A stretch of DNA of 64,000 nt from an uncultured Clostridia bacterium (GCA_934465535.1 CAKSKV010000001.1:167974-231973); one strand, 5' to 3'. Positions 31,164 through 44,924 are shown, counted from the first letter of the stretch. Program-made: numbers and translations. Notes: generated by a model from the letters alone, not told the origin.

Positions 31164-31192
31164 TTTACAACGGCACCGTTAGGTGGTATACT
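31164..31192 (+). promoter_or_regulatory. candidate sigma-A promoter for SPFH/Zn-ribbon/TPM cluster (TTTACA-17-TGgTATACT), ~125-nt leader
   Basis: sequence match only. Confidence 0.45.
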
Positions 31193-31319
31193 GAAACGGA
31201 TAACAATTCCGAAGCCTTACCCGATGGGCGCGGGCGAACATACCCGCTGCTGCAAGTCGTCATCCGGCAAAGGCGATATCGGAATTTATAAAATCAAATA
31301 TTTTTCGGAGGTTGCGGTT

Positions 31320-32681
31320 ATGGGTCTTATTAAAGCAGGCATAGGCGCCTTGGGCGGAACTCTTGCGGATCAGTGGAAGGAATTCTTCTATTGTGAGGCG
31401 CTTCCCAAAGAGGTGCTTGTTACCAAGGGACAGAAGGTTATAGGAAACCGTTCTTCAAACACCAAGGGCAGCGATAATATAATTACAAACGGTTCGGGAA
31501 TTGCGGTGGCGGACGGCCAGTGCATGATGATCGTGGAGCAGGGCAAGGTGGTAGAGGTATGCGCCGAGCCCGGTGAATTTACATACGATTCCTCCACGGA
31601 GCCCAGCATTTTTTCCGGCAGCCTCGGTCAAAGCATAAAGGAAACCTTCAAAACCATAGGCAAGCGTTTTACATACGGCGGGGACACGGGCAAGGATCAG
31701 CGGGTATACTACATAAACACCAAGGAGATAATGGAAAACCGTTTCGGAACGGCAAACCCCGTGCCTTTCAGGGTTGTTGATTCCAAAATCGGGCTGGACA
31801 TCGATGTGGCCATACGCTGTTCCGGCGTTTATTCCTACCGCATTGAGGACCCGATTCTGTTTTATACAAATGTATGCGGTAATGTAAGCAAGGAATTTAC
31901 AAGAGACGAGATAGACACTCAGCTCAAGCAGGAGTTTATAAGCGCGCTTCAGCCTGCCTTCGGTCAGCTTTCGCAGATGGAGCTGCGCCCCAACCAGATA
32001 GTGCTGCATAATACCGATCTGGAAAATGCCATGAATAAAACGCTGTCCGAAAAATGGGGAGAGCTGCGCGGATTAAAGGTGGTAAGCATTGCAATGGGTT
32101 CCGTAACGCTGCCCGAGGAGGATGCGGAGCTGATAAAGCAGGCGCAGAGGACCGCTATCATGCGCGATCCCAACATGGCGGCGGCCACCCTTGTGGGCGC
32201 GCAGGCCGATGCAATGAAGGCGGCGGCTTCAAACGAAAACGGCGCAATGACAGGCTTTATGGGAATGGGAATGGCGATGAACGCAGGCGGCGGCAACGCG
32301 CAGAATCTTTTTGCAATGGGACAGAGCCAAAATGCTGCGTCCGACAGCTGGAAATGCTCCTGCGGAAAAACCGTAAGCGGCAATTTTTGCCCCAACTGCG
32401 GTGCGAAGAAGCCGGAGGCGGTTAAAAAGGAAGGCTGGAAGTGCTCCTGCGGTGCCGAGGCTTACGGAAAATTCTGCCCCGAGTGCGGCGCGAAACGCCC
32501 GGAAAGCGGGACATGGACCTGCTCCTGCGGCGCGATAAATAAGGGAAAATTCTGTTCGGAATGCGGTGCTAAAAAGCCCGAAGCAGAAGCAAAACGCCGC
32601 TGCGGCAAATGCGGCTGGGAGCAGGAGGATATGACCAAAACTCCACGCTTCTGCCCTGAGTGCGGCGCACCCCTGGAGTAA
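31320..32681 (+). CDS. SPFH/band-7 family protein (YdjI-like) with four C-terminal zinc-ribbon repeats
   Basis: N-terminal MGLIKAGIGALGG band_7_1-like domain; C-terminal 4x W[KT]CSCG...FCxECGAK[KR]PE; ORF-track start 31059 rejected. Confidence 0.65.
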   Translation: MGLIKAGIGALGGTLADQWKEFFYCEALPKEVLVTKGQKVIGNRSSNTKGSDNIITNGSGIAVADGQCMMIVEQGKVVEVCAEPGEFTYDSSTEPSIFSGSLGQSIKETFKTIGKRFTYGGDTGKDQRVYYINTKEIMENRFGTANPVPFRVVDSKIGLDIDVAIRCSGVYSYRIEDPILFYTNVCGNVSKEFTRDEIDTQLKQEFISALQPAFGQLSQMELRPNQIVLHNTDLENAMNKTLSEKWGELRGLKVVSIAMGSVTLPEEDAELIKQAQRTAIMRDPNMAAATLVGAQADAMKAAASNENGAMTGFMGMGMAMNAGGGNAQNLFAMGQSQNAASDSWKCSCGKTVSGNFCPNCGAKKPEAVKKEGWKCSCGAEAYGKFCPECGAKRPESGTWTCSCGAINKGKFCSECGAKKPEAEAKRRCGKCGWEQEDMTKTPRFCPECGAPLE

Positions 32682-32757
32682 GCTTTTTTAGATGCATTTA
32701 TTATAAGCCCGGGTATCAGGCATGCCCGGGCGATCTGCTTGTTAAGGAGGATGAGCT

Positions 32758-33843
32758 TTGACTGTATTACAGGAATATAAATGCCCGTGCTGCGGCGGGG
32801 CGATAGAGTTTGACAGCTCTGTTCAGAAAATGAAGTGCCCGTATTGCGATACGGAATTTGAGATGGAAACCCTTAAAAGCTATGACGAGGAGCTTAAAAG
32901 CGAAAAGGGCGACGATATGCGCTGGGAGGCTCCGGGCAGCGGTCAGTGGAATATCGACGAGGAGACGGGACTGCGCTCATATGTATGCAAGTCCTGCGGA
33001 GGCGAGATAATCACCGACGCAAACACGGTGGCAACATCCTGCCCGTTTTGCGACAACCCCGTGGTGCTGATGCAGCAGGTGGCGGGTACGCTGCGCCCGG
33101 ATTATGTTATTCCCTTCAAGCTGGATAAAAAGGCAGCTAAAGAGGGGTTGGCGCGGCACCTTACCGGCAAGCGGCTGTTGCCGAAGGTGTTCAAGGATCA
33201 GAACCATATTGATGAGATAAAAGGCGTATATGTGCCGTTTTGGCTTTTTGATACAAATGCCGATGCCAATGTGCGCTACCGTGCAACAAAGGTGCGTTCA
33301 TGGAGCAGCTCAGATTACGATTATACCGAAACAAGCCATTTTATGGTGCTGCGGGGCGGCAATATAGCCTTTGAGCATGTGCCGGTGGACGGATCGGTAA
33401 AAATGCCGGACGATCTTATGGAATCCATAGAGCCGTATGATTTTTCGGAGGCGGTGGATTTCCAAACGGCATACCTTGCAGGATATCTTGCGGATAAATA
33501 TGATGTTTCTGCGCAGGACAGCGAGGAAAGAGCCAACAAACGCGTAAAAACCTCTACGGAGGAGGCGTTTGCAGGGACGGTCAACGGCTATACAACAGTG
33601 AATGTTGAGCAGAGCAATGTACATTTGAGCGACGGCAGCACCAAATATGCGCTGTATCCGGTGTGGCTGCTGAACACCACATGGAACGGACAAAAATATG
33701 TTTTTGCAATGAACGGTCAGACCGGGCGCTTTGTGGGCGATTTGCCGGTGGATAAAGCGGCAGCGCGAAAATGGACGCTTGGGCTTACTGCACTGTTCGG
33801 AGTTATCACATACGGGCTTGCATGGCTTATACATCTGCTGTAA
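32758..33843 (+). CDS. zinc-ribbon membrane protein (YdjG-like)
   Basis: two CxxC...CxxC zinc ribbons, C-terminal TM helix. Confidence 0.55.
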   Translation: MTVLQEYKCPCCGGAIEFDSSVQKMKCPYCDTEFEMETLKSYDEELKSEKGDDMRWEAPGSGQWNIDEETGLRSYVCKSCGGEIITDANTVATSCPFCDNPVVLMQQVAGTLRPDYVIPFKLDKKAAKEGLARHLTGKRLLPKVFKDQNHIDEIKGVYVPFWLFDTNADANVRYRATKVRSWSSSDYDYTETSHFMVLRGGNIAFEHVPVDGSVKMPDDLMESIEPYDFSEAVDFQTAYLAGYLADKYDVSAQDSEERANKRVKTSTEEAFAGTVNGYTTVNVEQSNVHLSDGSTKYALYPVWLLNTTWNGQKYVFAMNGQTGRFVGDLPVDKAAARKWTLGLTALFGVITYGLAWLIHLL

Positions 33844-33855
33844 GGGGGAAAGGGT

Positions 33856-34731
33856 ATGAAAAAAACATTTGCGGCCGTTTTGACGGCGGTGCTGCTTTGC
33901 CTTTCCTGCGTGCTTTGCTTTGCGGCAGAGGGGGAAAACGGCGGAAGTGAAAGCCTTACCCGTATAGCGGATCAAGCCGGTCTGCTTACGGAAACTCAGC
34001 GTGAGAAAATAGAGGATAAGCTTGCAGAGGTGCGGGAAAACCGCGATTTTGACATAGTGATAGTTACTGCGGAGTCCGCTCAGGGCAAATCCGAAATGGA
34101 TTATGCGGACGACTTCTTTGATTATAATGGCTACGGCTGCGGCACGGGCAGGGACGGCGTTCTGCTGCTTGTAAACATGGGCTCGCGCAAAACATGGATA
34201 TCCACGCGCGGCGAAGGCATACGGGTGTTCACCGATAAGGGCATAGAATGCATACTTTCCTCCGACGGAATAAGCAGCTATCTTTCGCGCGGGGATTATT
34301 ACGGCGCATTTGAGCACTTTATTGAGCTTTGCGACGATTTTATAGCCGCGAAAAGGTCCGGAAAGCCCTATGATATTGATAACATGCCGCCATGGAGCAC
34401 TCAGAGCGGCGACGGCATTTCGGACGGCGAATCAGAGGGGCTGTCACTTGTATGGATACCGCTTTCGTTAATTATCGGCTTTGTTATCGCCCTTTTGGTT
34501 GTGGGCGGCATGAAAAGCAAGCTCAAAAGCGTACATATGAAGGCGGCGGCCGATGATTATATCGTAAAGGACAGCATGAATATAACCCAGAGCAGCGATG
34601 TGTTCCTGTATAAAAATGTGGTTAAAAGAGCGCGCCCCAAAAACGATTCATCATCGTCCTCCCGCGGCGGAAGCAGCACCCATACCTCTTCATCTGGTTC
34701 TTCGCACGGCGGAGGCGGGGGCAGCTTCTGA
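33856..34731 (+). CDS. TPM-domain (TLP18.3/Psb32/MOLO-1 phosphatase-like) membrane protein, YdjH-like
   Basis: signal peptide, TPM domain, TM, Gly/Ser-rich tail. Confidence 0.65.
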   Translation: MKKTFAAVLTAVLLCLSCVLCFAAEGENGGSESLTRIADQAGLLTETQREKIEDKLAEVRENRDFDIVIVTAESAQGKSEMDYADDFFDYNGYGCGTGRDGVLLLVNMGSRKTWISTRGEGIRVFTDKGIECILSSDGISSYLSRGDYYGAFEHFIELCDDFIAAKRSGKPYDIDNMPPWSTQSGDGISDGESEGLSLVWIPLSLIIGFVIALLVVGGMKSKLKSVHMKAAADDYIVKDSMNITQSSDVFLYKNVVKRARPKNDSSSSSRGGSSTHTSSSGSSHGGGGGSF

Positions 34732-34782
34732 GAAAATCAACAGCCATAAAAGCGCGCAGCGCTCGCTTATGCTATATAAAGC

Positions 34783-34818
34783 AAGTACAGACGGCATTGC
34801 CGTCTGTACTTTTTTAAT
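34783..34818 (+). terminator. rho-independent terminator after TPM-domain gene
   Basis: AGTACAGACGGC/GCCGTCTGTACT stem plus TTTTTT. Confidence 0.65.
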
Positions 34819-34991
34819 ATCAACATCTAGACGCATAAACTAAACAAAATCGCGGCTTTGCCGTGCGCTTGCTTCGGATATCAAAGAAGTCGATTCAGTG
34901 CGGGAAAATAAGCAAAAGCCGGTGCTTTACGCACTTTTTATCGGGTGAGTGAAAATACATTAAAAGAATTTAATAAAAATCAAAAAAACGC

Positions 34992-35020
34992 TTTACTTTA
35001 GCGCGGTGATGTGCTACAAT
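34992..35020 (+). promoter_or_regulatory. candidate sigma-A promoter for amino-acid ABC operon (TTTACT-17-TGcTACAAT)
   Basis: sequence match only. Confidence 0.45.
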
Positions 35021-35083
35021 AGCAGCGTAATAAATCAAAGGCCGACGGAATTATCGCTTCGGCGGAAAATCAGGAGGATTAAA

Positions 35084-35869
35084 ATGAAAAAGAAACTGTT
35101 TATGCTTGTACTGCTTGCGGTAATGACACTGGGCCTTTTTGCCGGCTGCGCAAAGCAGGAGGAATTTGTTGTGGGCTTTGACGCCAGCTTCCCGCCGTAC
35201 GGATATGTTGAAAACGGCGAATATGTAGGCTTTGATATCGACCTTGCCAAAGAGGTTGCAAAGCGCAACGGCTGGAATATCAAGCTTCAGGCAATCGACT
35301 GGAACAGCAAGGATTTTGAGCTTAACTCCGGCACCATCAGCTGCATCTGGAACGGCTTTACCATGAACGGCCGCGAGGATAAATACACCTGGACCCGCGC
35401 TTATGTGGACAACAGCCAAGTGGTGGTGGTTAAGGCGGACAGCGGCATAAACGAGCTTTCCGACCTTGCGGGCAAAACGGTGGCGGTGCAGGACGATTCC
35501 TCCGCATTGGCGGTGCTGACAAATACCGAGGATAACGATGAAATGCTGGCCCTTGCCGCAACCTTTAACAAGCTTGACAAGGTGGGGGACTATGATACCG
35601 CCTTTATGAACCTTGCCTCCGGCGCGGTGGACGCCATAGCCATGGATATCGGCGTTGCCAAGTTTAAGGTTAAGGCGGGCGGCGACAAATACAAAATACT
35701 GGATAAGCAGCTTGCAAGCGAGCAGTACGGTGTTGGCTTCAAGAAAGGCAACACACAGCTGCGCGATAAGGTGCAGGCAACCCTTGACGAGATGATAAAG
35801 GACGGCACCTTTATGCAGATAGCTCAAAAGTGGGGGCTTGAGGACTGCGTTATAAACGAGGTAAAATAG
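35084..35869 (+). CDS. polar amino-acid ABC transporter substrate-binding lipoprotein
   Basis: lipobox LFAGC; SBP_bac_3 family; RBS AGGAGG. Confidence 0.85.
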   Translation: MKKKLFMLVLLAVMTLGLFAGCAKQEEFVVGFDASFPPYGYVENGEYVGFDIDLAKEVAKRNGWNIKLQAIDWNSKDFELNSGTISCIWNGFTMNGREDKYTWTRAYVDNSQVVVVKADSGINELSDLAGKTVAVQDDSSALAVLTNTEDNDEMLALAATFNKLDKVGDYDTAFMNLASGAVDAIAMDIGVAKFKVKAGGDKYKILDKQLASEQYGVGFKKGNTQLRDKVQATLDEMIKDGTFMQIAQKWGLEDCVINEVK

Positions 35870-35979
35870 CCACCGGGTGTAAGAGGGTGTCCGGGTGTCC
35901 CCGGACACCCTTGCCCGTGCTGCGGCAGGCGGCCGCATAAATTGATAATTCGGAAGGACAGCGGCGCGGCCGCACGGTT

Positions 35980-36642
35980 TTGCTTATGGATTTTTGGAAT
36001 ATATGTTTGCAGCTTGCGGAGGGAATGCTGACATCCCTTGCGATATTTGCCCTTACGCTGATATTCTCGCTGCCGCTTGGTCTGCTTGTGGCCTTTGCGC
36101 GCAAGTCAAAGCATGCATGGCTGCGCGTGCCCGTAAAGGTGTACATTTCCGTTATGCGCGGCACTCCGCTTATGCTGCAGCTGCTTATAGTGTATTTCGG
36201 GCCGTATCTTATATTCGGGGCAAAGCTCAGTGCGGATTACCGCTTTCCGGCTACTATTATCGCATTTGCCGTAAACTATGCGGCATATTTTGCGGAAATT
36301 TTCCGCTCCGGCATAGAATCCGTTCCGACGGGGCAGTATGAAGCGGCGCAGGTGCTGGGGCTCAGCCGCCGCCAGTGCTTTTTCCGAGTGATATTCCCTC
36401 AGGTAATAAAGCGTGTGCTGCCGCCCGTTACAAACGAGGTAATAACCCTTGTAAAGGATACCTCCTTGGCTTATGCCATTGCCGTTACCGAAATGTTCAC
36501 TCTCGCAAAGCAGATAGCGGCGGCGGAAAGCTCGCTGCTGCCCTATCTTGCCGCAGGGATATTCTATTATATCTTCAATTTCCTTGTGGCCTTTGCAATG
36601 GAGCGCGCGGAGCGCGCCTTTGACTACTATCAAACCAAGTGA
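35980..36642 (+). CDS. amino-acid ABC transporter permease
   Basis: His/Glu/Gln/Arg/opine permease family EAA loop. Confidence 0.85.
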   Translation: MLMDFWNICLQLAEGMLTSLAIFALTLIFSLPLGLLVAFARKSKHAWLRVPVKVYISVMRGTPLMLQLLIVYFGPYLIFGAKLSADYRFPATIIAFAVNYAAYFAEIFRSGIESVPTGQYEAAQVLGLSRRQCFFRVIFPQVIKRVLPPVTNEVITLVKDTSLAYAIAVTEMFTLAKQIAAAESSLLPYLAAGIFYYIFNFLVAFAMERAERAFDYYQTK

Positions 36643-36652
36643 GGTGACGGCA

Positions 36653-37408
36653 ATGATACTGGAAATAAAAAATATCGTAAAGCGCTTTGGCGAAAACGAA
36701 ATATTAAAGGGGGTTTCCCTCAGTGTTGATAAGGGGGAAACGGTGGCCGTCATCGGGCCGTCCGGCAGCGGAAAAAGCACCCTTCTGCGCTGCGCGACCG
36801 CTCTTGAAAGGGCCGACAGCGGCGAAATACTCTATAACGGCAAAGCGCTTATGACCATGAACGGCGGCGTTCCCGTTTTTGCCAAGGGGGAGGAGCTTGC
36901 CCGTATTCGCGCCAGCTTCGGGCTGGTGTTTCAGAACTTCAACCTTTTTCCGCATATGTCGGTAATGCAGAATATAACCCTTGCGCCCACCCTTACGCGC
37001 GGCGTGTCAAAGGAGGAGGCAAAGCAAAAAGCCCTGTCGCTTTTGGAGCGCATGGGGCTTGCGGATAAGGCGGCGGCCTACCCCTGCGAGCTTTCCGGCG
37101 GGCAGCAGCAGCGTGTTTCCATTGCGCGCGCTTTGGCCTTGAACCCGGATATCCTCTTTTTTGACGAGCCTACAAGCGCGCTGGACCCGGAGCTTACAGG
37201 GGAGATACTTGCCGTTATACGGGAGCTTGCGGCATCGGGCATGACCATGGTGGTGGTTACGCACGAGATGAGCTTTGCAAGGGAGGCAGCGGACCGCGTG
37301 GTGTTCCTGGACGGCGGCAGCATAGCGGCGCAGGGGCGGCCGGATGAGGTTATGGATAACCCGGCAAACGAGCGCCTTAAGGCCTTTCTTTCCCGTTTTG
37401 CCCGCTGA
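36653..37408 (+). CDS. amino-acid ABC transporter ATP-binding protein
   Basis: Walker A GPSGSGKST, signature LSGGQQQR, Walker B; start at MILEIK. Confidence 0.9.
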   Translation: MILEIKNIVKRFGENEILKGVSLSVDKGETVAVIGPSGSGKSTLLRCATALERADSGEILYNGKALMTMNGGVPVFAKGEELARIRASFGLVFQNFNLFPHMSVMQNITLAPTLTRGVSKEEAKQKALSLLERMGLADKAAAYPCELSGGQQQRVSIARALALNPDILFFDEPTSALDPELTGEILAVIRELAASGMTMVVVTHEMSFAREAADRVVFLDGGSIAAQGRPDEVMDNPANERLKAFLSRFAR

Positions 37409-37432
37409 AACGCCGGCAAAGAAATATAAAAA

Positions 37433-37476
37433 GCGTCGGGAGGGCAGCATAACCCCCTCCCGGCGCTTGTGTGTTT
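37433..37476. terminator. bidirectional terminator between ABC ATPase gene and end of TIR operon
   Basis: GCGTCGGGAGGG/CCCTCCCGGCGC stem flanked by A-run upstream and T-rich run downstream. Confidence 0.6.
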
Positions 37477-37522
37477 ACAGTCTTTTACGGCATTTCGGGC
37501 GGCATCGCGCCCGTGGTTGTTA

Positions 37523-38170
37523 TTATGCTGCTTTGCTTTTGTATGATTTATAAAACATCCTGTCATTAAATATCTTTTTGATTGGCTTTGGTAAACGCGG
37601 GCATTCCTCAATAGCTAATTCCAGCACTTTCCTTGGACTGATGCGCTTGCGGTTAGCTAATGCAACCGCGTCAATTGCAGATACTTCTGTTTTGCAAGCG
37701 TCAATAAGGCGTTCCATAAACCGCGGAAAACTGTCAATATACTCTTTTTTAATGCCGTAGTTGATATCTATGTAATTGTAATTTGAAAAATTTAAGTATT
37801 TTTTCGAACCGGATGTCGAATTATTCTGCAAAACAATTATTTCCGGCTCGCCGGAATATCTCCAGTTTGAAAGCCGTCCCCGCAATTCATCACAGGCTTC
37901 CGTAAAACACTTGTCGCTGTATTGCCATTTTTGATTATCTGTTCCGGGAATCTCCGTCACATCGGAATAATTACGGCCAAAATTCGGAGAATATCCAAGC
38001 CAATAAATTGAACAGTATTTTTTTGAACGATAGTGAAGATAATTGATTTTTTTGATATATTCTTCAGCACTCGAGTCGGAGGGCTTCACCAATAACAAAA
38101 CGATTACATGATTTCCTTCAAGTAATTTTTCTTGTTTTTCAATACCCGCTATGTTATTTATCGGATACAT
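37523..38170 (-). CDS. hypothetical protein, low-GC, last gene of the TIR operon
   Basis: ORF with RBS GGAGAA before ATG 38170; AT-rich codon usage unlike neighbours; no family recognised. Confidence 0.45.
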   Translation of the reverse strand: MYPINNIAGIEKQEKLLEGNHVIVLLLVKPSDSSAEEYIKKINYLHYRSKKYCSIYWLGYSPNFGRNYSDVTEIPGTDNQKWQYSDKCFTEACDELRGRLSNWRYSGEPEIIVLQNNSTSGSKKYLNFSNYNYIDINYGIKKEYIDSFPRFMERLIDACKTEVSAIDAVALANRKRISPRKVLELAIEECPRLPKPIKKIFNDRMFYKSYKSKAA

Positions 38171-38269
38171 CTGATTCTCCTTTTTTCCACACAAATTTAC
38201 TTAATACTTTTTGCAATTTATAGGTATGTCCAGATGACAAATAAGGGCAATAGCCTAAAAGTATTTGCT

Positions 38270-41074
38270 TTATTCATTTTTCATAGAGTCAAGATCAATC
38301 CATAAGGCGGGACGAACACCGCAACCGTCACTGGTGACAAATCCGTTACTTTTGTAACAGAGGCCACCGGAAGAGGACATGACAAAAGCAGCGTAGTAAG
38401 GGCCGGTGAGCGACCGCAGCCACCACGCATCAGCACCACTACCTGCTGCGTGTGCTTTTGCGTAAGCTGTAAAGGCGCATTTTCGTGCATGGTTATCACT
38501 GAAGTATTTTTCCACTTCGTTGTAACTGAGCAGGAATACTTTATCCGTTGTTGCATTGCCGGGATCTGTGTAGTAGTTCAGAATTTTATCGACAGATACG
38601 GTGCTGCTTTGAATCAGCGCCCTTTCTTCTTCGCTGAATGCCTCATTAAGAAAAGAGTCATTCAGCCATTTGCGAAGAGAGCATTGCTCCCATGTGATGG
38701 CTTTTCTTGTTTCGTAGTATGGCTTTTCGTTGTAGGGCTGGAAGTCAAGAACTTTATTGCTTATGACAAGTATTTTATTGCTTTCCTTTGCTAAAACAAG
38801 CCATTCAATATCTTCTGCGCCGTTAGAAGTGACATTATCCTGTTCATAGGTTCCGAAAGTAAATTTATCTCCAATAGCTAAAAGCTGTTTGCATTTTGTT
38901 TTTATGTATTCACATTTTTCTTTGCTGTCTTTATAGGAAATATCTTTCAGAAGTATATAGGCGGATTCATAATCGCCCGAATCTATACATTTAATGGCTC
39001 TGTCATATTTGCTTGCGAAGATGGTGTCGATGTCGTTGATTTCTCTAAGCAGGGTGTACGCAGAATCGAAATTGCCGGAATCGAGCAGCTTCATAGCTCT
39101 GCTCCGTTTGCTGGAAGCTATGGTTTCGCTGTCGCCGATTTCTTCAAGCAGGGTGTACGCAGAATCGAAATTGCCGGAATCGAGCAGCTTCATAGCTCTG
39201 CTCCGCTTGCTGGAGGCTATGGTTTCATTGTCATCGATTTCTTTAAGCAGGGCGTATGCGGAATCGTAGTCTTCCGATTCAAGCAGCTTCATTGCGCGGT
39301 TATACTTGCTAACTTTGATATCATCATCTTTGTTTATTTCTTCAAGCAAGGAATAGGCGGAATCGTAATCTCCCGATTCCAGCAAATTCATCGCTTTGTT
39401 ATACTTCAGCTGCGGAATAATGACCATGTTCAGCACGATTACAAAGGCTATGCAGACACATAAAACGGGAGTGGCAATGGCAGCAAACTTTTTGAGCCGT
39501 TTTGCCCTTTTTGCGGCGGCAATTCGCTTTTCTTCTATCCGTTTTTGGCAGGCGTATATTTGGCTGTCGGCATCCCGCCAGCCGGGAATGGTCTTAAATA
39601 TCGCTATTGCTTCCTCGTATGAAGCGGTGTTCCCGACGGCCCTCCTTGATATTGCAGTGGTGTACAATGCGTCCTTGCGGCAGCTTTCCGCTTTTTCAAG
39701 GCATTGCGCGGCAAGTGCGTCGGCATCGCGGAAGCCGGAAATGCTTTTGAACAGCTCGGCTCCTTTAAGAAAGGCATTTTGCGCCGCAGCGGACTTCATA
39801 ATGCCGCATGCATTGTTATAAATTGCGCTCTTACGGCGCGTTTCGTTGCGCTCGTTTATAATGTCTATATATCCGCGCAGCTCCGTATTCAGCGCTTCAT
39901 CGCCAAAGCGGAGAATTTTTAAGTAGTTTTCGTTTTTGTCAAACGGCTGCGCGCAGTCGCTCAGCTGCCCGCGCTTTGGAACCTGCAGCTCCGCCATCAG
40001 CTTGCCCAGATACGCCTGTGCATTTTTCGGGTCTATATCCAGCACCTTTTCGCAGTAGGTGTCGGCGTCGGACCATTTGCCGTCCTCAAGGAAAAGAAAC
40101 GTCCGTTCCAGAAGGGGCGCAGCGCCCGTGCTGCCCGCGGCTGCCGGCGCGGCAGGCTTTGCGGCGTTTTTTTGCCCGTCGGAGGATACTATCTTTTTTA
40201 TACCCCGTATAAGGTCCTGCATAAAGCCTAACTTGCCCATATCCTGCGCCTGAAGGTGGGAGAATTCCTCGGGCAGATCGTAGGGGTCCATGTCCTTATA
40301 GGCGGGAATAAGCATTTTTTTGGCGCCGTTTTTAATAAGCGCAAGGTAACGGCTCCACTCGTTTTTTACCCATACGGCGTTGAAATATTCCGGCCTTGTG
40401 CCCAAAACCACCATGACCTTTGCGCTGTTAAGGGCGGCGAATATGTACGGCTCGTAGGCGGAGCCCAGCTTGTCCTCCAGAGTAATACGGCTGAAGAACA
40501 CCTTGAAGCCCTCCTGCGTCAGCTGGTGGTAAAGGTCGTTTGCCAGCACGCTGTCGGGCGTTCTTGCACCGCGGCTGTCGGTTTCCTTATAGCAGATAAA
40601 TACATCAAAGGGCTCCTCCTTCTGTGAAATTGCAAGAATGCCCTTTTGAATTTCATTTATTGCCTTGGCCTCGGCTTCGTAAATTTCCTTTTGGGCGGCG
40701 TCGGCGCAGCGCAGAGCGGATTTGTAGTTATCATCGTCAAAGACGGAGGTAAACTGCGCCCTGTTCACCGTGGGAATGCGCTTGCCGGTGGCCGGGTCCT
40801 CCACATATTCAATACCGTAGCGGCAAAGCACAAGGGACCAATAAGCCTCGGCGTCGGTGCTGTCCTCGGCCAGAATCTGTTCGTATATGCTCATTGCCTT
40901 GTCGTATTCGTTATTGCGGCGGAAATGATTTGCCCGGTCATACAGGTTTGCCTTTTTATCGTCGTCAAGGCGGGGAAGGGTCTGCTTGGTGCCGCAGCTG
41001 TCGCACACGGCAACTGTGTCGCCGGGATTAAATTCCAGTGTCCCGCCGCACATTTTACATTTGAAGATTGCCAT
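38270..41074 (-). CDS. type II membrane protein: N-terminal Zn-ribbon + TIR domain + TPR-like region, single TM, 5 tandem 33-aa repeats, C-terminal DUF6273-like extracellular domain
   Basis: TIR motifs DVFICYKE, VMVVLGT, WVKNEW (putative catalytic Glu); TM AIATPVLCVCIAFVIVLNMVII preceded by KRAKRLKK; ATG 41074 overlaps upstream stop (TAATG) with RBS AGGAG. Confidence 0.8.
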   Translation of the reverse strand: MAIFKCKMCGGTLEFNPGDTVAVCDSCGTKQTLPRLDDDKKANLYDRANHFRRNNEYDKAMSIYEQILAEDSTDAEAYWSLVLCRYGIEYVEDPATGKRIPTVNRAQFTSVFDDDNYKSALRCADAAQKEIYEAEAKAINEIQKGILAISQKEEPFDVFICYKETDSRGARTPDSVLANDLYHQLTQEGFKVFFSRITLEDKLGSAYEPYIFAALNSAKVMVVLGTRPEYFNAVWVKNEWSRYLALIKNGAKKMLIPAYKDMDPYDLPEEFSHLQAQDMGKLGFMQDLIRGIKKIVSSDGQKNAAKPAAPAAAGSTGAAPLLERTFLFLEDGKWSDADTYCEKVLDIDPKNAQAYLGKLMAELQVPKRGQLSDCAQPFDKNENYLKILRFGDEALNTELRGYIDIINERNETRRKSAIYNNACGIMKSAAAQNAFLKGAELFKSISGFRDADALAAQCLEKAESCRKDALYTTAISRRAVGNTASYEEAIAIFKTIPGWRDADSQIYACQKRIEEKRIAAAKRAKRLKKFAAIATPVLCVCIAFVIVLNMVIIPQLKYNKAMNLLESGDYDSAYSLLEEINKDDDIKVSKYNRAMKLLESEDYDSAYALLKEIDDNETIASSKRSRAMKLLDSGNFDSAYTLLEEIGDSETIASSKRSRAMKLLDSGNFDSAYTLLREINDIDTIFASKYDRAIKCIDSGDYESAYILLKDISYKDSKEKCEYIKTKCKQLLAIGDKFTFGTYEQDNVTSNGAEDIEWLVLAKESNKILVISNKVLDFQPYNEKPYYETRKAITWEQCSLRKWLNDSFLNEAFSEEERALIQSSTVSVDKILNYYTDPGNATTDKVFLLSYNEVEKYFSDNHARKCAFTAYAKAHAAGSGADAWWLRSLTGPYYAAFVMSSSGGLCYKSNGFVTSDGCGVRPALWIDLDSMKNE
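38845..39335. repeat. five tandem 99-bp repeats inside the TIR-protein gene (encode 33-aa repeats SGxFDSAYxLLxEIxD...)
   Basis: period-99 recurrence of AAGCAGGGTGTACGCAGAATCGAAATTGCCGGAATCGAGCAGCTTCATAGCTCTGCTCCG at 39047, 39146, 39245; two units ~95% identical. Confidence 0.7.
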
Positions 41075-41523
41075 TATACTGACTCCTTTTTGATAATATT
41101 TATCCAAGATAGCAAAGTATCTTCATAGAGAATGATTCTTGCTTTTTCGTAGCCTTTATAGTTGGAAAAATAATAAATTCGCGTCTTTTTGTAACATCTT
41201 ACATTAAAACTGCCGTGCGCTAACGCGTTTCTAATAGCGGAAAATAGGGAGGAAACCACTCCGTTTTCATCATTTGCTAAAAATACGCAATACTCGTCCG
41301 GATATGTAATTGCTTCGCATTTTCTGAAATTTGAAGGTAACTCGCTTTTTTTGCTTGGCATATAGTTGCCCTTCAAGCTTGGGGTTGCGGCCTGTAAAAG
41401 ATTGTTCTTTAGTTTGGTAAAAGAAGGAGATCTGCTGTATCCAAGCTGTTTGAAAGTTTTTCCTCTGTGGCTCTTTCCTTCAACAGGACATTCAAATAAA
41501 TAAAACTGAATGATTTTTTGCAA
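41074..41523 (-). CDS. small HEPN-like protein (Rx4H motif IRNALAHG)
   Basis: Rx4H motif typical of HEPN RNases; AT-rich; start uncertain (TTG 41523 or ATG 41361). Confidence 0.4.
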   Translation of the reverse strand: MQKIIQFYLFECPVEGKSHRGKTFKQLGYSRSPSFTKLKNNLLQAATPSLKGNYMPSKKSELPSNFRKCEAITYPDEYCVFLANDENGVVSSLFSAIRNALAHGSFNVRCYKKTRIYYFSNYKGYEKARIILYEDTLLSWINIIKKESV

Positions 41524-41579
41524 GTTTTTATTTGATATGCTTGAAGGTTCTGTGAAATTTGTGCAATACTTAGCGTTTT

Positions 41580-42278
41580 TTACTTCATCGCCTTACACTT
41601 TCCGTTTCGCTCTGCCAGAGTATCCAGCAGGCTTTGCGCCGCCTCTGTCGCGCCCTGACCGGCGTTTACGGCATTTTCAAACGCCTTGAATTCCTTTTCA
41701 AGCTCCGCCTCAATCGCGCTTAATGCCTCGCTGCTTACGGGGTCGGAATATCGCAGCGCCTCATATACCTTTTTTGCCGCCGCTTTTTCGTCCGGGTTTT
41801 TGGCTTTGGCAAGCAGCGTTTCGGCGTTTACTGTTAAAAGCTTTATAAGCTGTGTCTGCGCTTTTACCTTTTCTTCAACGGCATCGGCAGCCTTTCCCGC
41901 CCAATCGGCACGGACAACGGCCGCTGCGGTAACGGCTGCGGCAATCAGGCACACAACGGCGGCAATCCATGCGGGGCAGCCCGGAATAAGCATAAGCGCT
42001 CCGCCCAGCACCAGCATAACAATCAACCCCGCGTAGCTGACGGTTATAAGCGGCAGATTGTAAAACAGCTTTTTAAGGTTCTGTGCCTTAAAGGCAAAAT
42101 ATGCGCAGACGAGATTTCCGATAAAAGCCGCGAGAATAAATCCCCACGCAATCCAGAAACGCGCATCGTAATTGACCACATATCCCGGAATTATGGGACA
42201 AACAAGAAACACGACAGCATTAAACACTACAAGCATGATTGCCCATATCAGCGCATACGATTTGAAATTCCTTTTCAT
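41580..42278 (-). CDS. membrane protein: 4 TM helices plus C-terminal coiled coil
   Basis: hydrophobic N-terminal half, Ala/Glu/Lys-rich helical C-terminal half. Confidence 0.55.
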   Translation of the reverse strand: MKRNFKSYALIWAIMLVVFNAVVFLVCPIIPGYVVNYDARFWIAWGFILAAFIGNLVCAYFAFKAQNLKKLFYNLPLITVSYAGLIVMLVLGGALMLIPGCPAWIAAVVCLIAAAVTAAAVVRADWAGKAADAVEEKVKAQTQLIKLLTVNAETLLAKAKNPDEKAAAKKVYEALRYSDPVSSEALSAIEAELEKEFKAFENAVNAGQGATEAAQSLLDTLAERNGKCKAMK

Positions 42279-42293
42279 TGTCCGTTCCTCCTG

Positions 42294-43436
42294 TTATAAA
42301 ATGCTTTTAAGCAGCTCTGCCTTCATGGCGGCGAATTCCTCATCGGTAATCAGCCCGGCGTTTTTCATCACCGTCAGCTTTTCCGCTTTTGCTTTGAATG
42401 TCGCCATATCATCGGCGGGTTGTGCTGCCTGCTGCGGCTGAGCCGGCTGCGCCGCTGCGCTTACGGCGTTATTTACTGCGCCGCCCACCATGCCGCTTAC
42501 TGCGCCGCCGACACCCGCCATTGTGCCAAAGCCTATTCCCATATTGGTAAACTGACCAACCGCCTCGTTCTGCGCCGCCGTCTGCGCCACATCAAAGCTG
42601 CGCTCCTGCGCGTATGTATAGCCCTCCTGCGCCCGCTTTGTGGCCTGCGCCTGAGAATCTATCACTATTTTCTGCGCCTCTGTCTGGGCGTTTATGATAT
42701 CGGTCTGCTGCTTAAGCTTGGCTTCGGCAATATCCGCATACTGGCGGAAATGCAGCTCCTTGAATTTTTCATACTGCTTCTCGCCGTCCGGCTTTACTAT
42801 GGTGGTTACAAAAAATCTTTCCAGCGCAATGCCGTAATCGGCAAAGTCCGGAATAAGAAGCTTATGCAGATTCTCGGAAAAGGCCGTCAGGTTTTCGTCA
42901 ATTTCAAAAATATTTATGGAATTTGCCCGTATGACCTGAGCGATATATGTTTTTACCCTTGTCATAAGAAAAGCACGGAAAAAACCGGTCAGCTGCTGCT
43001 GCCCCAAAAAGCTTTCCGTTCCCACAAGCTTTATAAGCAGCCTGCGGCTGTCCTGCACGCGCAGGCTCATTTCGCCCGATGCGCCTATCGAAATGGGGAA
43101 GCGGTATGTTGGGTCGATATACTGTATTTTGGAATCGGTTCCCCATTTGATAGCCATCTGCTCGGTTTTGTTTATAAAATAAACCTCGCAGTGGAATGGG
43201 GTCTTATCGCCGACGGTGCGGTTGAGCAGCTTTCCGATTTTTGGTATGTTCTGTGTTTCCAGCGTATACCTGCCCGGCCCGAACAGGTCAAGCGCCTGCC
43301 CGTTCATGAAAAATACGGCTTCCTGCGATTCATGCACGATAAGCTGTGTAAGAGTGTTGAAATCTTCGCATGGGTGCTTCCAGATGAAGGTGGAATTATC
43401 CCCCTCGTATTTGATTACATCTGCAATTTGTGCCAT
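42294..43436 (-). CDS. SPFH/band-7 (YdjI-like) protein with C-terminal SHOCT domain
   Basis: band_7_1-like core; C-terminal GLITDEEFAAMKAELL SHOCT motif; RBS GGGAGG before ATG 43436 (ORF-track extension to 43553 runs into the inverted repeat). Confidence 0.7.
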   Translation of the reverse strand: MAQIADVIKYEGDNSTFIWKHPCEDFNTLTQLIVHESQEAVFFMNGQALDLFGPGRYTLETQNIPKIGKLLNRTVGDKTPFHCEVYFINKTEQMAIKWGTDSKIQYIDPTYRFPISIGASGEMSLRVQDSRRLLIKLVGTESFLGQQQLTGFFRAFLMTRVKTYIAQVIRANSINIFEIDENLTAFSENLHKLLIPDFADYGIALERFFVTTIVKPDGEKQYEKFKELHFRQYADIAEAKLKQQTDIINAQTEAQKIVIDSQAQATKRAQEGYTYAQERSFDVAQTAAQNEAVGQFTNMGIGFGTMAGVGGAVSGMVGGAVNNAVSAAAQPAQPQQAAQPADDMATFKAKAEKLTVMKNAGLITDEEFAAMKAELLKSIL

Positions 43437-43452
43437 TAAAATACCTCCCTGT

Positions 43453-43483
43453 AACATAATCTGCATTATGTTGTAGTGCAAGT
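43453..43483. repeat. left arm of perfect 31-bp inverted repeat (AACATAATCTGCATTATGTTGTAGTGCAAGT)
   Basis: exact reverse complement of 43737..43767. Confidence 0.9.
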
Positions 43484-43670
43484 AAAAAAAGATCGCAGTG
43501 CCCGTAAAAAAATTTGTCACAAAAACCGTGCAAAATAAAAAAAGGCGCAGCAAAGCAGGCCTTTTCGAAAAAAGTTGAAAAAATAACGCGAAAAGGCTTT
43601 TTCGGCATGCCTGATTTTTGACGGCGGGGGCAGAAGCGACTGTTTTTTTTGGTCAAATATTTACAAACTA

Positions 43671-43699
43671 TTTACAAAGTGCCCCCATTATGCTATAAT
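43671..43699 (+). promoter_or_regulatory. near-consensus sigma-A promoter inside invertible segment (TTTACA-17 bp-TGcTATAAT), currently firing away from the SPFH/TIR operon
   Basis: -35 TTTACA 43671..43676, 17-bp spacer, extended -10 TGcTATAAT 43691..43699. Confidence 0.6.
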
Positions 43700-43736
43700 T
43701 AAGCATATAATGATGTTGTTTGTCATACTCGTGGGA

Positions 43737-43767
43737 ACTTGCACTACAACATAATGCAGATTATGTT
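43737..43767. repeat. right arm of perfect 31-bp inverted repeat
   Basis: exact reverse complement of 43453..43483. Confidence 0.9.
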
Positions 43768-43792
43768 GCTTCTGCTGCGCGGTATGGCTTTT

Positions 43793-44635
43793 TTATATTA
43801 TCAGATGCAGGTTCTCCATGCGGCGGCGGTGTTCTGCACCGGAGGATATAATATATATACGCGTGGTGTTTATGCTGCTGTGACCCAGAATATCGGCAAG
43901 CTTTGCAAGGTCTTTTTCGATCTCATAAAACAGCCGGGCAAACAAATGCCGCAGATTATGGGGAAACACCTTTTTCGGGCTGACATTTGCCCGCGTACAC
44001 AGCGCTTTCATCTCCCGCCAGATATTTGTTCGGTTAAGCGGCTTTCCCAAACGCGTTATAAATATCATACCCTCCTTTATTCCTTTTTTTGCAGCATACT
44101 TAAGCAGCTTTTGCCGCAGCTCCTTCACAAGGAAAACCGAGCGCGTTTTTCCCTTGCAGCTAACAAGCGCTTCGCCGCGTTTTGCCGCATCCACCGTTAT
44201 ATGCTGCAGCTCGCTTACCCGTATGCCCGTGCTGCACAGCGTTTGCAATACAAGGCAGAGCCGTTTGTTGCCGGAATGCCGCGCCGCTTCGCACAGCCGC
44301 GTGTATTCGGCCTTTGTAAGTTCCTTTTCCTCGGAACAGAACGCTTGCTGCTGAAGTGATACCGATTTTACCTTCAGGTCATGCCAGCCCATAAGGGAAA
44401 ACAGAACATTCAGGCTTGTGAGCATTGAATTAACACTGCGCACGGAATAGTTATCCCGCAGCCGCTTTTTGTACGCAATAACAGTTTCCTTGGTAACGGG
44501 GCCGCTTTGGGCATAGCGCGAAAACGCCGTTGCATCGCGGATATATTTTTCCACCGTTGCGCCGCTTCGCTCCTCAAAGATAAGATGCTTTTTGAATCCG
44601 GCAATGGCATTTGCCGTTATAAACCGCTCTTTCAT
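43793..44635 (-). CDS. tyrosine site-specific recombinase (phage integrase/XerD-like fold)
   Basis: HxxR (HNLRH) and C-terminal LGHSSINTTRIY catalytic Tyr motif. Confidence 0.85.
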   Translation of the reverse strand: MKERFITANAIAGFKKHLIFEERSGATVEKYIRDATAFSRYAQSGPVTKETVIAYKKRLRDNYSVRSVNSMLTSLNVLFSLMGWHDLKVKSVSLQQQAFCSEEKELTKAEYTRLCEAARHSGNKRLCLVLQTLCSTGIRVSELQHITVDAAKRGEALVSCKGKTRSVFLVKELRQKLLKYAAKKGIKEGMIFITRLGKPLNRTNIWREMKALCTRANVSPKKVFPHNLRHLFARLFYEIEKDLAKLADILGHSSINTTRIYIISSGAEHRRRMENLHLII

Positions 44636-44924
44636 TTCAGTTTACCTCCGGATATATTTAATTTTTATTTTATCAGAAAAAACTTAAGGCGAAAATATGC
44701 GCAGCAGGCCGCATTAAAAGCGCAAAAGCCTGCGCATAGTCCCACAAATGGACGCAGACTTGCCTTAACCTTTGAAATCAGCGGCGGAGGCAAAAGCGCG
44801 GGCGGGCAAAACAAGTCAGGATTCGTCCAAAGCCGCCAAAGGAAATTAAAGGGGAATGCGGAATTATTTATGGCAAACAAAGGAAGCGGAGCATATGCGC
44901 TCAGAGGAAAGGACGGACAGACAA

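Follow-up and report, generated by a model that had tools for sequence, protein, structure and literature searches.

In Bacillus subtilis, pspA, ydjG, ydjH and ydjI form an operon of the sigma-W regulon (Scholz et al., 2021, PMC8581546; Ravi et al., 2024, PMC11237479), and the proteins encoded with PspA are a band-7 protein with a C-terminal zinc ribbon (YdjI), a protein with two ribbons, a YpeB/NTF2-like domain and a transmembrane (TM) segment (YdjG) and a TPM-domain protein (YdjH) (PMC11237479). Two-hybrid contacts in B. subtilis link YdjG with YdjH, YdjH with YdjI, YdjH with PspA and YdjI with PspA, a direct YdjG-YdjI contact is not reported, and YdjG and YdjH act as membrane anchors for YdjI, not as its clients (PMC8581546). 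Here we compare with this operon, and with other described SPFH, TIR and phase-variable systems, a 64-kb stretch of DNA from an uncultured Clostridia bacterium (the window), in which the locus at 31320-34731 had been flagged. The explanation that we consider quite probable as a whole is that the window holds two separate SPFH modules, module A (31164-34811), which includes the flagged locus, and module B (37523-44635). Module A is of a known kind, a ydj module, and ordinary by itself; the main interest lies in the coupling of SPFH and TIR in module B, a phase-variable SPFH-TIR operon that has apparently gone undescribed. In the literature we found no description of SPFH with TIR signaling, of Band-7 with TIR conflict systems, of an invertible promoter with TIR, or of such an operon.

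All three of the Bacillus proteins other than PspA have full-length homologs in module A. An exact-match DNA search with a published ydjG forward primer (PMC8581546) led to pspA-ydjG-ydjH-ydjI in four Bacillus subtilis-group genomes, and reference open reading frames (ORFs) were those of Bacillus stercoris (locus L002). BLASTP aligned the ribbon protein of module A with YdjG over its full length (35% identity over 343 aa, E 1e-78), the TPM protein with YdjH end to end (26%, E 2e-24) and the SPFH protein, SPFH1, with YdjI (23% over 340 aa, E 8e-16) in an alignment that reaches the C-terminal ribbon. The domains fit those of the Bacillus proteins as well: the YdjG homolog has two N-terminal ribbons and a C-terminal TM segment, the YdjH homolog has an N-terminal signal or TM segment, a TPM domain, a second TM segment and a low-complexity tail, and SPFH1, in keeping with the COG4260-type Band_7_1 family of YdjI, combines PF13421 with a C-terminal zinc ribbon and has no hydrophobic or TM segment in its hydropathy profile. 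An earlier note on this DNA had described an SPFH gene followed by genes for a zinc-ribbon membrane protein and a TPM-domain protein, on which gene calls, Pfam and TM predictions agree, and had matched this domain set to ydjG/ydjH/ydjI in a changed order and with no pspA nearby, a match that direct BLASTP to the Bacillus operon and tblastn now substantiate. The gene order is I-G-H rather than the pspA-G-H-I of Bacillus, and tblastn with Bacillus PspA across the 64 kb gave a best E of 1.5, i.e., no pspA; with neither pspA upstream nor the Bacillus order, the locus is not a pspA-ydjGHI unit in the strict sense. Module A is thus a ydj module without pspA and with a changed gene order, and its three genes correspond by homology to ydjG, ydjH and ydjI of the Bacillus operon.

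The I-G-H order also occurs in two gut contigs (L010 and L011), with different flanking genes. In two other loci (L008, 7160-9925; L009, 429-3194) the gene before a YdjG-like/TPM pair encodes not an SPFH protein but a 148-aa Cys-rich multi-TM protein; the ydj triad is, therefore, not obligatory. The YdjG-like protein has more than 8000 homologs, mainly from gut Clostridia, and its two top-scoring matches (P0001, 531 aa; P0002, 485 aa) far exceed the norm of 361-364 aa and are possibly fusions or mis-called starts. An exact-cluster look-up returned one named member, a TPM protein of an Oscillospiraceae metagenome-assembled genome, in clusters that mixed unrelated sequences.

SPFH1 differs from Bacillus YdjI in an extra N-terminal segment of ~50 aa and in its tail, where four ribbons stand in place of the single one of YdjI (L002). 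The four tandem repeats reported for SPFH1 hold good as a count of ribbons, with the qualification that three are near-identical units (W[KT]CSCG-x6-FCx[NE]CGA at aa 344-362, 373-391 and 399-417) and the fourth is divergent (aa 426-450, RRCGKCG..FCPECGA). The further claim that such a decoration is uncommon fails on comparison with relatives, because the SPFH1 orthologs of L010 and L011 carry four and three ribbons, respectively, and, among 50 complete SPFH proteins from operons with TIR genes, 21 have a C-terminal array of 2-4 ribbons and 29 a SHOCT-like tail. In L022, L052, L057, L065 and L090 the SPFH protein encoded with TIR likewise terminates in the SPFH1-type unit (W-x-C-x-C-G..FCxxCG), and the array of SPFH1 is a variable-copy form of a family feature. 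The TIR-linked SPFH genes, that of L005 (7513-8748) included, thus exchange their C-terminal module, and some of the proteins carry an N-terminal ribbon extension. As to the second SPFH protein of the window, SPFH2 of module B, it matches YdjI (31% over 144 aa, E 3e-14) and has the YdjI domain (E 9e-39), but it ends in SHOCT and not in a ribbon. The positions first given for the two SPFH genes are correct by ORF listing and Pfam; their description as paralogs needs the qualification that, both being Band_7_1 proteins, they are only distantly related (23% identity over 130 aa, E 1e-3).

Module A is a three-gene housekeeping operon in which, on the model of B. subtilis, two partners would carry the soluble SPFH1 to the membrane, a tail-anchored, two-ribbon YdjG-like protein and a YdjH-like protein with its TPM domain facing outward and its Gly/Ser tail in the cytosol, and the three proteins together would make up a scaffold beneath the membrane that serves in envelope maintenance or stress. 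The operon reading is supported by a promoter-like site and a terminator-like hairpin that bracket the three genes (Table 1). Rfam gave zero matches on 28-46 kb, hence no riboswitch in the 260-nt SPFH1 leader. The tails of the YdjH-like protein (34650-34731) and of Bacillus YdjH (L002, 4440-4508) are both Gly/Ser-rich and end in ..GSF, and Bacillus YdjG ends in ..GGGF; these C-terminal motifs could be a candidate contact for YdjI.

In module B, SPFH2 heads an operon that continues with a 4-TM protein (mem232), a small protein (p149) and a TIR receptor (Table 1). Is this association of SPFH and TIR genes an accident of one genome? A metagenome scan gave 80 TIR loci, 71 of them with a homolog of the 4-TM protein and 59 with an SPFH homolog. 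In every one of the 36 loci in which at least 3.5 kb of sequence precedes the first TIR module, an SPFH gene, then the 4-TM gene and then the TIR gene(s) lie on the same strand, and in these 36 loci the SPFH proteins are 42-97% and the 4-TM proteins 28-94% identical, with the TIR module staying at 83-99%. One to three TIR paralogs follow the SPFH and 4-TM genes in L005 and L006, and three contigs of a viral collection have the same arrangement again; two other viral-collection matches (L094 and L095), which are truncated SPFH remnants in prophage tail regions, were set aside. In the earlier note the TIR protein received its SPFH scaffold from the first gene of its own operon, and a functional link between these two genes is strongly supported by the 36 loci and by the recombinase-flanked invertible promoter that precedes the operon.

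The promoter lies between perfect 31-nt inverted repeats and reads TTTACA-17-TATAAT (with TG, extended -10; 11/12 matches), and a tyrosine recombinase gene lies 26 nt away, as in other invertons. In the present sequence the inverton is OFF: the promoter faces the recombinase, away from the minus-strand SPFH2-TIR operon. When the opposite orientation was sought in metagenome contigs, L012 alone carried the segment, in unchanged orientation. A core of the inverted repeat, ACATAATnnnnATTATGTTG, is kept in nine related recombinase-bearing loci, where the arms lie 209-269 nt apart, and a recombinase homolog lies upstream of the SPFH gene in 13 of the 80 related loci. The region from 37500 to 44700 has low GC (0.44-0.49 versus ~0.51) and a flattened GC skew, features consistent with an inserted island, and the operon has an amino-acid ABC-transporter operon on one side and minD/minE/rodA on the other.

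The TIR family itself is very large. Its N-terminal 151 residues have 5026 cluster representatives at 50% identity, 2496 of them with E <1e-30; among the top 149 relatives, the ribbon is kept in 147 and exactly one TM segment is present in 112, and TIR_2 was found in 46 of 50 sampled relatives. The first ~290 residues (ribbon-TPR-TIR), with the Glu of a WVKNEW motif among them, hardly vary, and the extracellular C-termini are hypervariable (among the 50 sampled, DUF6273 in 12, BspA-type leucine-rich repeats in eight, Listeria-Bacteroides repeats in five and RCC1 in some). In the window protein this residue position is represented by Glu239 (WxxxE position), which aligns with the WCxxE glutamate of the TIR domain of a Toll-like receptor. 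Many database copies of the family (P0121-P0389) are truncated at contig ends, which suggests that assemblies break in the gene.

DUF6273 is a known target fold of diversity-generating retroelements (DGRs) and occurs in phage receptor-binding proteins (PMC10743442). A reverse transcriptase (RT) gene lies just downstream of TIR/DUF6273 genes in three related loci (L005, 13227-14267; L027, 13379-14419; L053, 13389-14417), and short RT remnants are present in L054 and L055. Because DUF6273 is a known DGR target and RT genes lie nearby in related loci, some family members are probably DGR-diversified. In the 64-kb window we found no RT homolog and no template repeat, and the sole long direct repeat is the array of five tandem 99-nt units in the TIR gene, two of them 97% identical, which forms a juxtamembrane extracellular stalk and is a likely site of length variation.

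What connects the two modules, if anything, is the N-terminal ribbon that the YdjG-like and TIR proteins have in common. The earlier note had quoted both N-terminal peptides, which match exactly, and had proposed that the TIR protein is a YdjG-type SPFH client that gained TIR and extracellular domains. The TIR protein begins MAIFKCKMCGGTLEFNPGDTVAVCDSCG, with the 14-residue knuckle spacing of YdjG ribbon 1, and BLASTP aligns it with the YdjG-like protein at 33% identity over 42 aa (E 8e-4), with homology confined to the ~30-aa ribbon. A hidden Markov model of each ribbon found the other protein as its best non-self match among 812 six-frame ORFs of the window, with cross-scores of 13-18 bits among ~7300 ORFs from all fetched loci. 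With hhalign, the TIR ribbon aligned with YdjG ribbon 1 at 97.1% (score 42.5) and with YdjG ribbon 2 at 97.0% (score 42.3), values like those of the two YdjG ribbons with each other (96.9%, score 41.5), whereas a control, the C-terminal SPFH ribbons, reached 16.6% (score 15.0) against the TIR ribbon. The two N-terminal ribbons are, as had been supposed, related beyond a generic CxxC spacing. The descent of the TIR protein from YdjG could not be upheld. By BLASTP and Pfam, it has no second ribbon and no YdjG central domain, only one ribbon followed by TPR and TIR_2; no YdjG or YdjH homolog is found in the 80 TIR loci; and YdjG itself is an anchor, not a client. Against Pfam PF08271 (Zn_Ribbon_TF, gathering threshold 29 bits), ribbon 1 of Bacillus YdjG scores 41.2 bits, above the threshold, and the TIR ribbon (20.7 bits), YdjG-like ribbon 2 (20.2) and YdjG-like ribbon 1 (17.0) fall below it, yet are among the top matches. 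On these scores the TIR ribbon appears to be of a generic TFIIB type, no closer to YdjG than to the Pfam model and lacking a YdjG-specific signature, and, as nothing homologous extends beyond this ribbon, the TIR protein is not a YdjG derivative.

Nevertheless, the ribbon recurs in the TIR operons. Every TIR paralog begins with a TFIIB-type ribbon, and so do several non-TIR genes of these operons: after the 4-TM gene we found TIR-less ribbon-TPR-coiled-coil proteins (L030, L056, L068, L092), TIR-less ribbon-TPR-RCC1 proteins (L057, L059, L064) and short ribbon-TM proteins (L059, L061). An N-terminal ribbon is present in 6 of 49 non-core operon genes versus 8 of 440 genes outside (Fisher p 0.0012, from a crude gene call and non-independent loci), and five of the eight outside genes directly adjoin the operon, leaving 3 of ~435. 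A 207-aa protein of L059 (9659-10282) joins a ribbon and a TM segment to a homolog of the cytosolic tail of the 4-TM protein (38% over 66 aa, E 2e-8), with the motif RYADPVS. In addition, the subtype of the TIR ribbon (CDSCG or CEYCG) goes with the type of SPFH tail (SHOCT or array), at 29:3 versus 7:14 (Fisher p 3.6e-5, uncorrected for shared ancestry), a correlation that linkage on the same mobile element could explain alone. On a viral-collection contig (L092, 1829-6275) a ribbon-array SPFH gene, a 4-TM homolog and a TIR-less ribbon-TPR-coiled-coil gene are accompanied by genes for a separate 280-aa TIR-like protein (FLSHSHADE motif) and a small 3-TM protein.

Modules A and B, then, share a design, in which a TM-less Band_7_1 SPFH protein, with ribbon arrays or SHOCT at its end, is encoded together with membrane proteins of which at least one is led by a cytosolic TFIIB-type ribbon. 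In module B, the SPFH2/4-TM pair may assemble or restrain ribbon-led TIR receptors in the membrane, and the binding of a ligand outside would lead to clustering of the TIR domains and to cleavage of NAD+ inside. That the ribbon might serve as a tag for docking onto the SPFH/4-TM assembly is a suggestion that we offer tentatively and regard as rather doubtful; the observations on the ribbon fit such an address but do not prove contact. A bolder version, to which we give slightly less credence still, is that the short TFIIB-type ribbon would be a portable tag that recruits membrane-tethered proteins with no other kinship (YdjG, TIR receptors and ribbon-TPR-RCC1 or ribbon-TPR-coiled-coil proteins) to assemblies of TM-less Band_7_1 SPFH proteins, and that SPFH/4-TM/TIR would be a new phase-variable immune-receptor system of gut Firmicutes, with partly DGR-diversified surface sensing and an SPFH cage that controls the clustering of TIR NADases.

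Several points weigh against the account that we prefer. The related loci are mostly closely related mobile elements from gut metagenomes, with the effect that the 36 of 36 and the enrichment statistics overstate their independence. In B. subtilis the two-hybrid contact of YdjI is made via YdjH and not YdjG, leaving contact between a ribbon protein and an SPFH protein unsupported in that species, and the TIR ribbon scores higher against Pfam Zn_Ribbon_TF (20.7 bits) than against the YdjG ribbons (9-18 bits). A stress-response role for module A would be an extrapolation, since pspA is absent from the 64 kb. A defense role for module B is suggested by its TIR domain, island context and phase variation, and PADLOC, run on nine proteins, gave no defense-system match, only spurious matches to repeat regions.

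Could the likeness of the ribbons simply be incidental? If TFIIB-type ribbons commonly cap, at the N-terminus, the cytosolic domains of Firmicute membrane proteins, that of the TIR family would serve the TIR and TPR parts (for example in oligomerization or in binding nucleotides or nucleic acids), and SPFH2 and the 4-TM protein would act elsewhere, on the membrane or on each other, and not on the ribbon. We take this possibility seriously and put its chance somewhat below even. The bit scores and the two-hybrid data speak in its favor, as do the placement of all the ribbons in the generic PF08271 class, the end of homology at the ribbon and the near-invariance of ribbon-TPR-TIR (the first 155 columns include many without variation), a pattern expected of a single folded or co-evolving module. 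However, an incidental cap fits poorly with the recurrence of ribbon-led non-TIR proteins within the same operons, with the rarity of ribbons among flanking genes once those directly adjacent are left aside, with the existence of a fusion of ribbon and 4-TM tail, and with the correlation of ribbon subtype and SPFH C-terminus, subject to the shared ancestry noted above.

The constant adjacency and fixed order of the SPFH and 4-TM genes, set against downstream ribbon-led genes that vary in number and type, would also be expected if the 4-TM protein were a killing effector (pore- or holin-like), SPFH2 its cage or inhibitor, as HflK/C is for FtsH, and TIR an upstream sensor whose NAD-derived product, or the depletion of NAD, frees the effector, making SPFH a safety device and not a scaffold for TIR. 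The TIR domain keeps its catalytic-position Glu, and the 4-TM proteins have weak and inconsistent matches to DUF4231/SLATT-like and holin models. Those matches, however, involve 3 of 53 members each (E ~0.006-0.013), with no consistent Pfam match for the family and no nucleotide-sensor domain detected in the 4-TM protein, and we consider an effector of this kind unlikely; assignment of the 4-TM protein to the SLATT/DUF4231 effector family was rejected (3 of 53 members match, at E ~0.006). Far less probable still is that the TIR receptor uses, in trans, a scaffold made by the ydj triad, although the spacing of ~3 kb between the loci would then be accounted for. The two do lie close together in the window (34731 to 37523) and have three features in common (Band_7_1, the unit of the ribbon arrays and the type of N-terminal ribbon), but a YdjG-like or TPM gene lies within 10 kb in none of the 80 TIR loci, the triads of L010 and L011 have no TIR operon nearby, the amino-acid ABC-transporter operon sits between the two loci, and the TIR island, with its lower GC (0.44) and different skew, looks inserted. 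With no co-occurrence either at the 80 TIR loci or in L010 and L011, we rejected cooperation of the modules in trans, and the absence of ydj genes from the TIR loci implies that the closeness of modules A and B in the window is coincidental.

Comparison with other described systems sets module B apart. As in the classical SPFH operons (FloT/FloA-NfeD, HflK/C-FtsH), an SPFH gene is accompanied by one for a small multi-TM partner, and the window SPFH proteins, like those of such operons, presumably assemble into a membrane-associated oligomer that organizes clients. Unlike them, both window proteins are of the PF13421 type without a membrane anchor of their own, and there is no protease; SPFH2 of module B is partnered by a helical-tailed 4-TM protein, whereas the partner of FloT/FloA is an NfeD OB-fold protein, and among the neighbors of the window SPFH genes there is no Pfam match to NfeD and thus no SPFH-NfeD unit. 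With Thoeris and other TIR anti-phage systems, module B shares TIR_2 with a conserved catalytic-position Glu and a variable island. It differs from Thoeris in having no ThsA-type (SIR2/SLOG) effector, no PADLOC model match to its operon proteins (the NCBIfam model ThcB4 gave 29.6 bits against a cut-off of 220) and a TIR domain that forms part of a single-pass receptor, one whose variable domain lies outside the cell and whose gene, in all 36 loci with enough flank, accompanies those for SPFH and the 4-TM protein. Conflict systems with DGR-diversified C-type-lectin "antigen sensors" have been described (PMC10907252), and module B resembles DGR-diversified sensors in its DUF6273 ectodomain and in the RT genes of related loci (L005, L027, L053), but would signal via a membrane-tethered TIR with an SPFH partner and not via a STAND NTPase. 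Its perfect inverted repeats, strong promoter in a 253-nt segment and immediately adjacent recombinase are those of gut invertons, whose usual cargo of capsule, fimbrial or surface-protein genes is here replaced by an SPFH-TIR operon.

Table 1. Features of modules A and B, with positions (nt) counted from the first letter of the 64-kb window
Feature	Position	Strand	Basis
Module A
Promoter-like site, TTTACA-17-TATACT with TG	31164..31192	+	consensus scan, 10/12; sigma-70-like pattern match alone
SPFH1, YdjI-like soluble Band_7_1 SPFH protein, 453 aa	31320..32681	+	PF13421, E 6e-20
SPFH1 C-terminal zinc-ribbon array	32349..32669	+	regular expression and coordinates
YdjG homolog, 361 aa, with central domain between ribbons and C-terminal TM	32758..33843	+	BLASTP, hydropathy
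YdjG-like ribbon 1	32782-32847 (aa 9-30)	+	CxxC-x14-CxxC
YdjG-like ribbon 2	32986-33051 (aa 77-98)	+	CxxC-x14-CxxC
YdjG-like C-terminal TM	33784-33840 (aa 343-361)	+	hydropathy
YdjH homolog, 291 aa, Gly/Ser-rich tail ending GGSF	33856..34731	+	PF04536, E 9e-29
YdjH-like signal/TM	aa 2-26	+	hydropathy
YdjH-like TPM domain	33967-34338	+	PF04536
YdjH-like second TM	34432-34524 (aa 193-223)	+	hydropathy
Terminator-like hairpin after the three genes	34783..34811	+	13-bp stem, 7 GC pairs, then T-run
Module B
p223, 223 aa, last gene of the operon	37523..38194	-	no Pfam, NCBIfam, PADLOC or PHROG match
TIR receptor, 934 aa, ribbon-TPR-TIR_2-TPR-TM-repeats-DUF6273	38270..41074	-	Pfam, TM, repeats
TIR receptor, outer part: DUF6273	38294-38779	-	
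TIR receptor, outer part: 5 x 33-aa repeats	38940-39398	-	
TIR receptor, TM	39401-39496	-	
TIR receptor, inside part: TIR_2	40235-40603	-	
TIR receptor, inside part: ribbon	40994-41059	-	
p149, 149 aa, IRNALAHG (Rx4H) motif	41074..41523	-	no Pfam match
mem232, 232-aa 4-TM protein, helical cytosolic tail with RYSDPxS motif	41580..42278	-	hydropathy
SPFH2, 380 aa, first gene of the TIR operon	42294..43436	-	Band_7_1, E 9e-39
SPFH2 SHOCT tail	42309-42380	-	Pfam
SPFH2 coiled-coil region		-	Pfam
SPFH2 Band_7_1 domain	42783-43349	-	Pfam
Inverton, 253-nt segment flanked by perfect 31-nt inverted repeats (43453-43483 and 43737-43767)	43453..43767	.	repeat search
Promoter in the invertible segment	43671-43699	+	11/12 matches
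Tyrosine recombinase by the invertible promoter	43793..44635	-	PF00589, E 7e-26; weaker matches to tyrosine-type DNA invertase models

Of the smaller genes of module B, p149 has a stop that overlaps the TIR start (TAATG), and at its operon position other loci hold different small genes. A 258-aa protein of L006 matches it (BLASTP, E 2e-7) and keeps the IRNALAHG motif, from which motif alone p149 may be HEPN-like. A p223 homolog lies downstream of the TIR gene in two of the 80 loci, L012 and L064. A PDB sequence search with SPFH2 gave no match.

We conclude that the ydj triad of module A extends the known Bacillus membrane-stress module to gut Clostridia, and that this module can exist without an adjacent pspA. 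Of wider consequence is the strict genomic coupling that we observed between a Band_7_1 SPFH gene and the genes for transmembrane TIR proteins, whose family is hypervariable and, with 5026 representatives, very large. If the SPFH assembly controls TIR clustering, the arrangement would parallel the organization of animal Toll-like receptors by lipid rafts and flotillins, and bacterial SPFH proteins would gain a concrete client.

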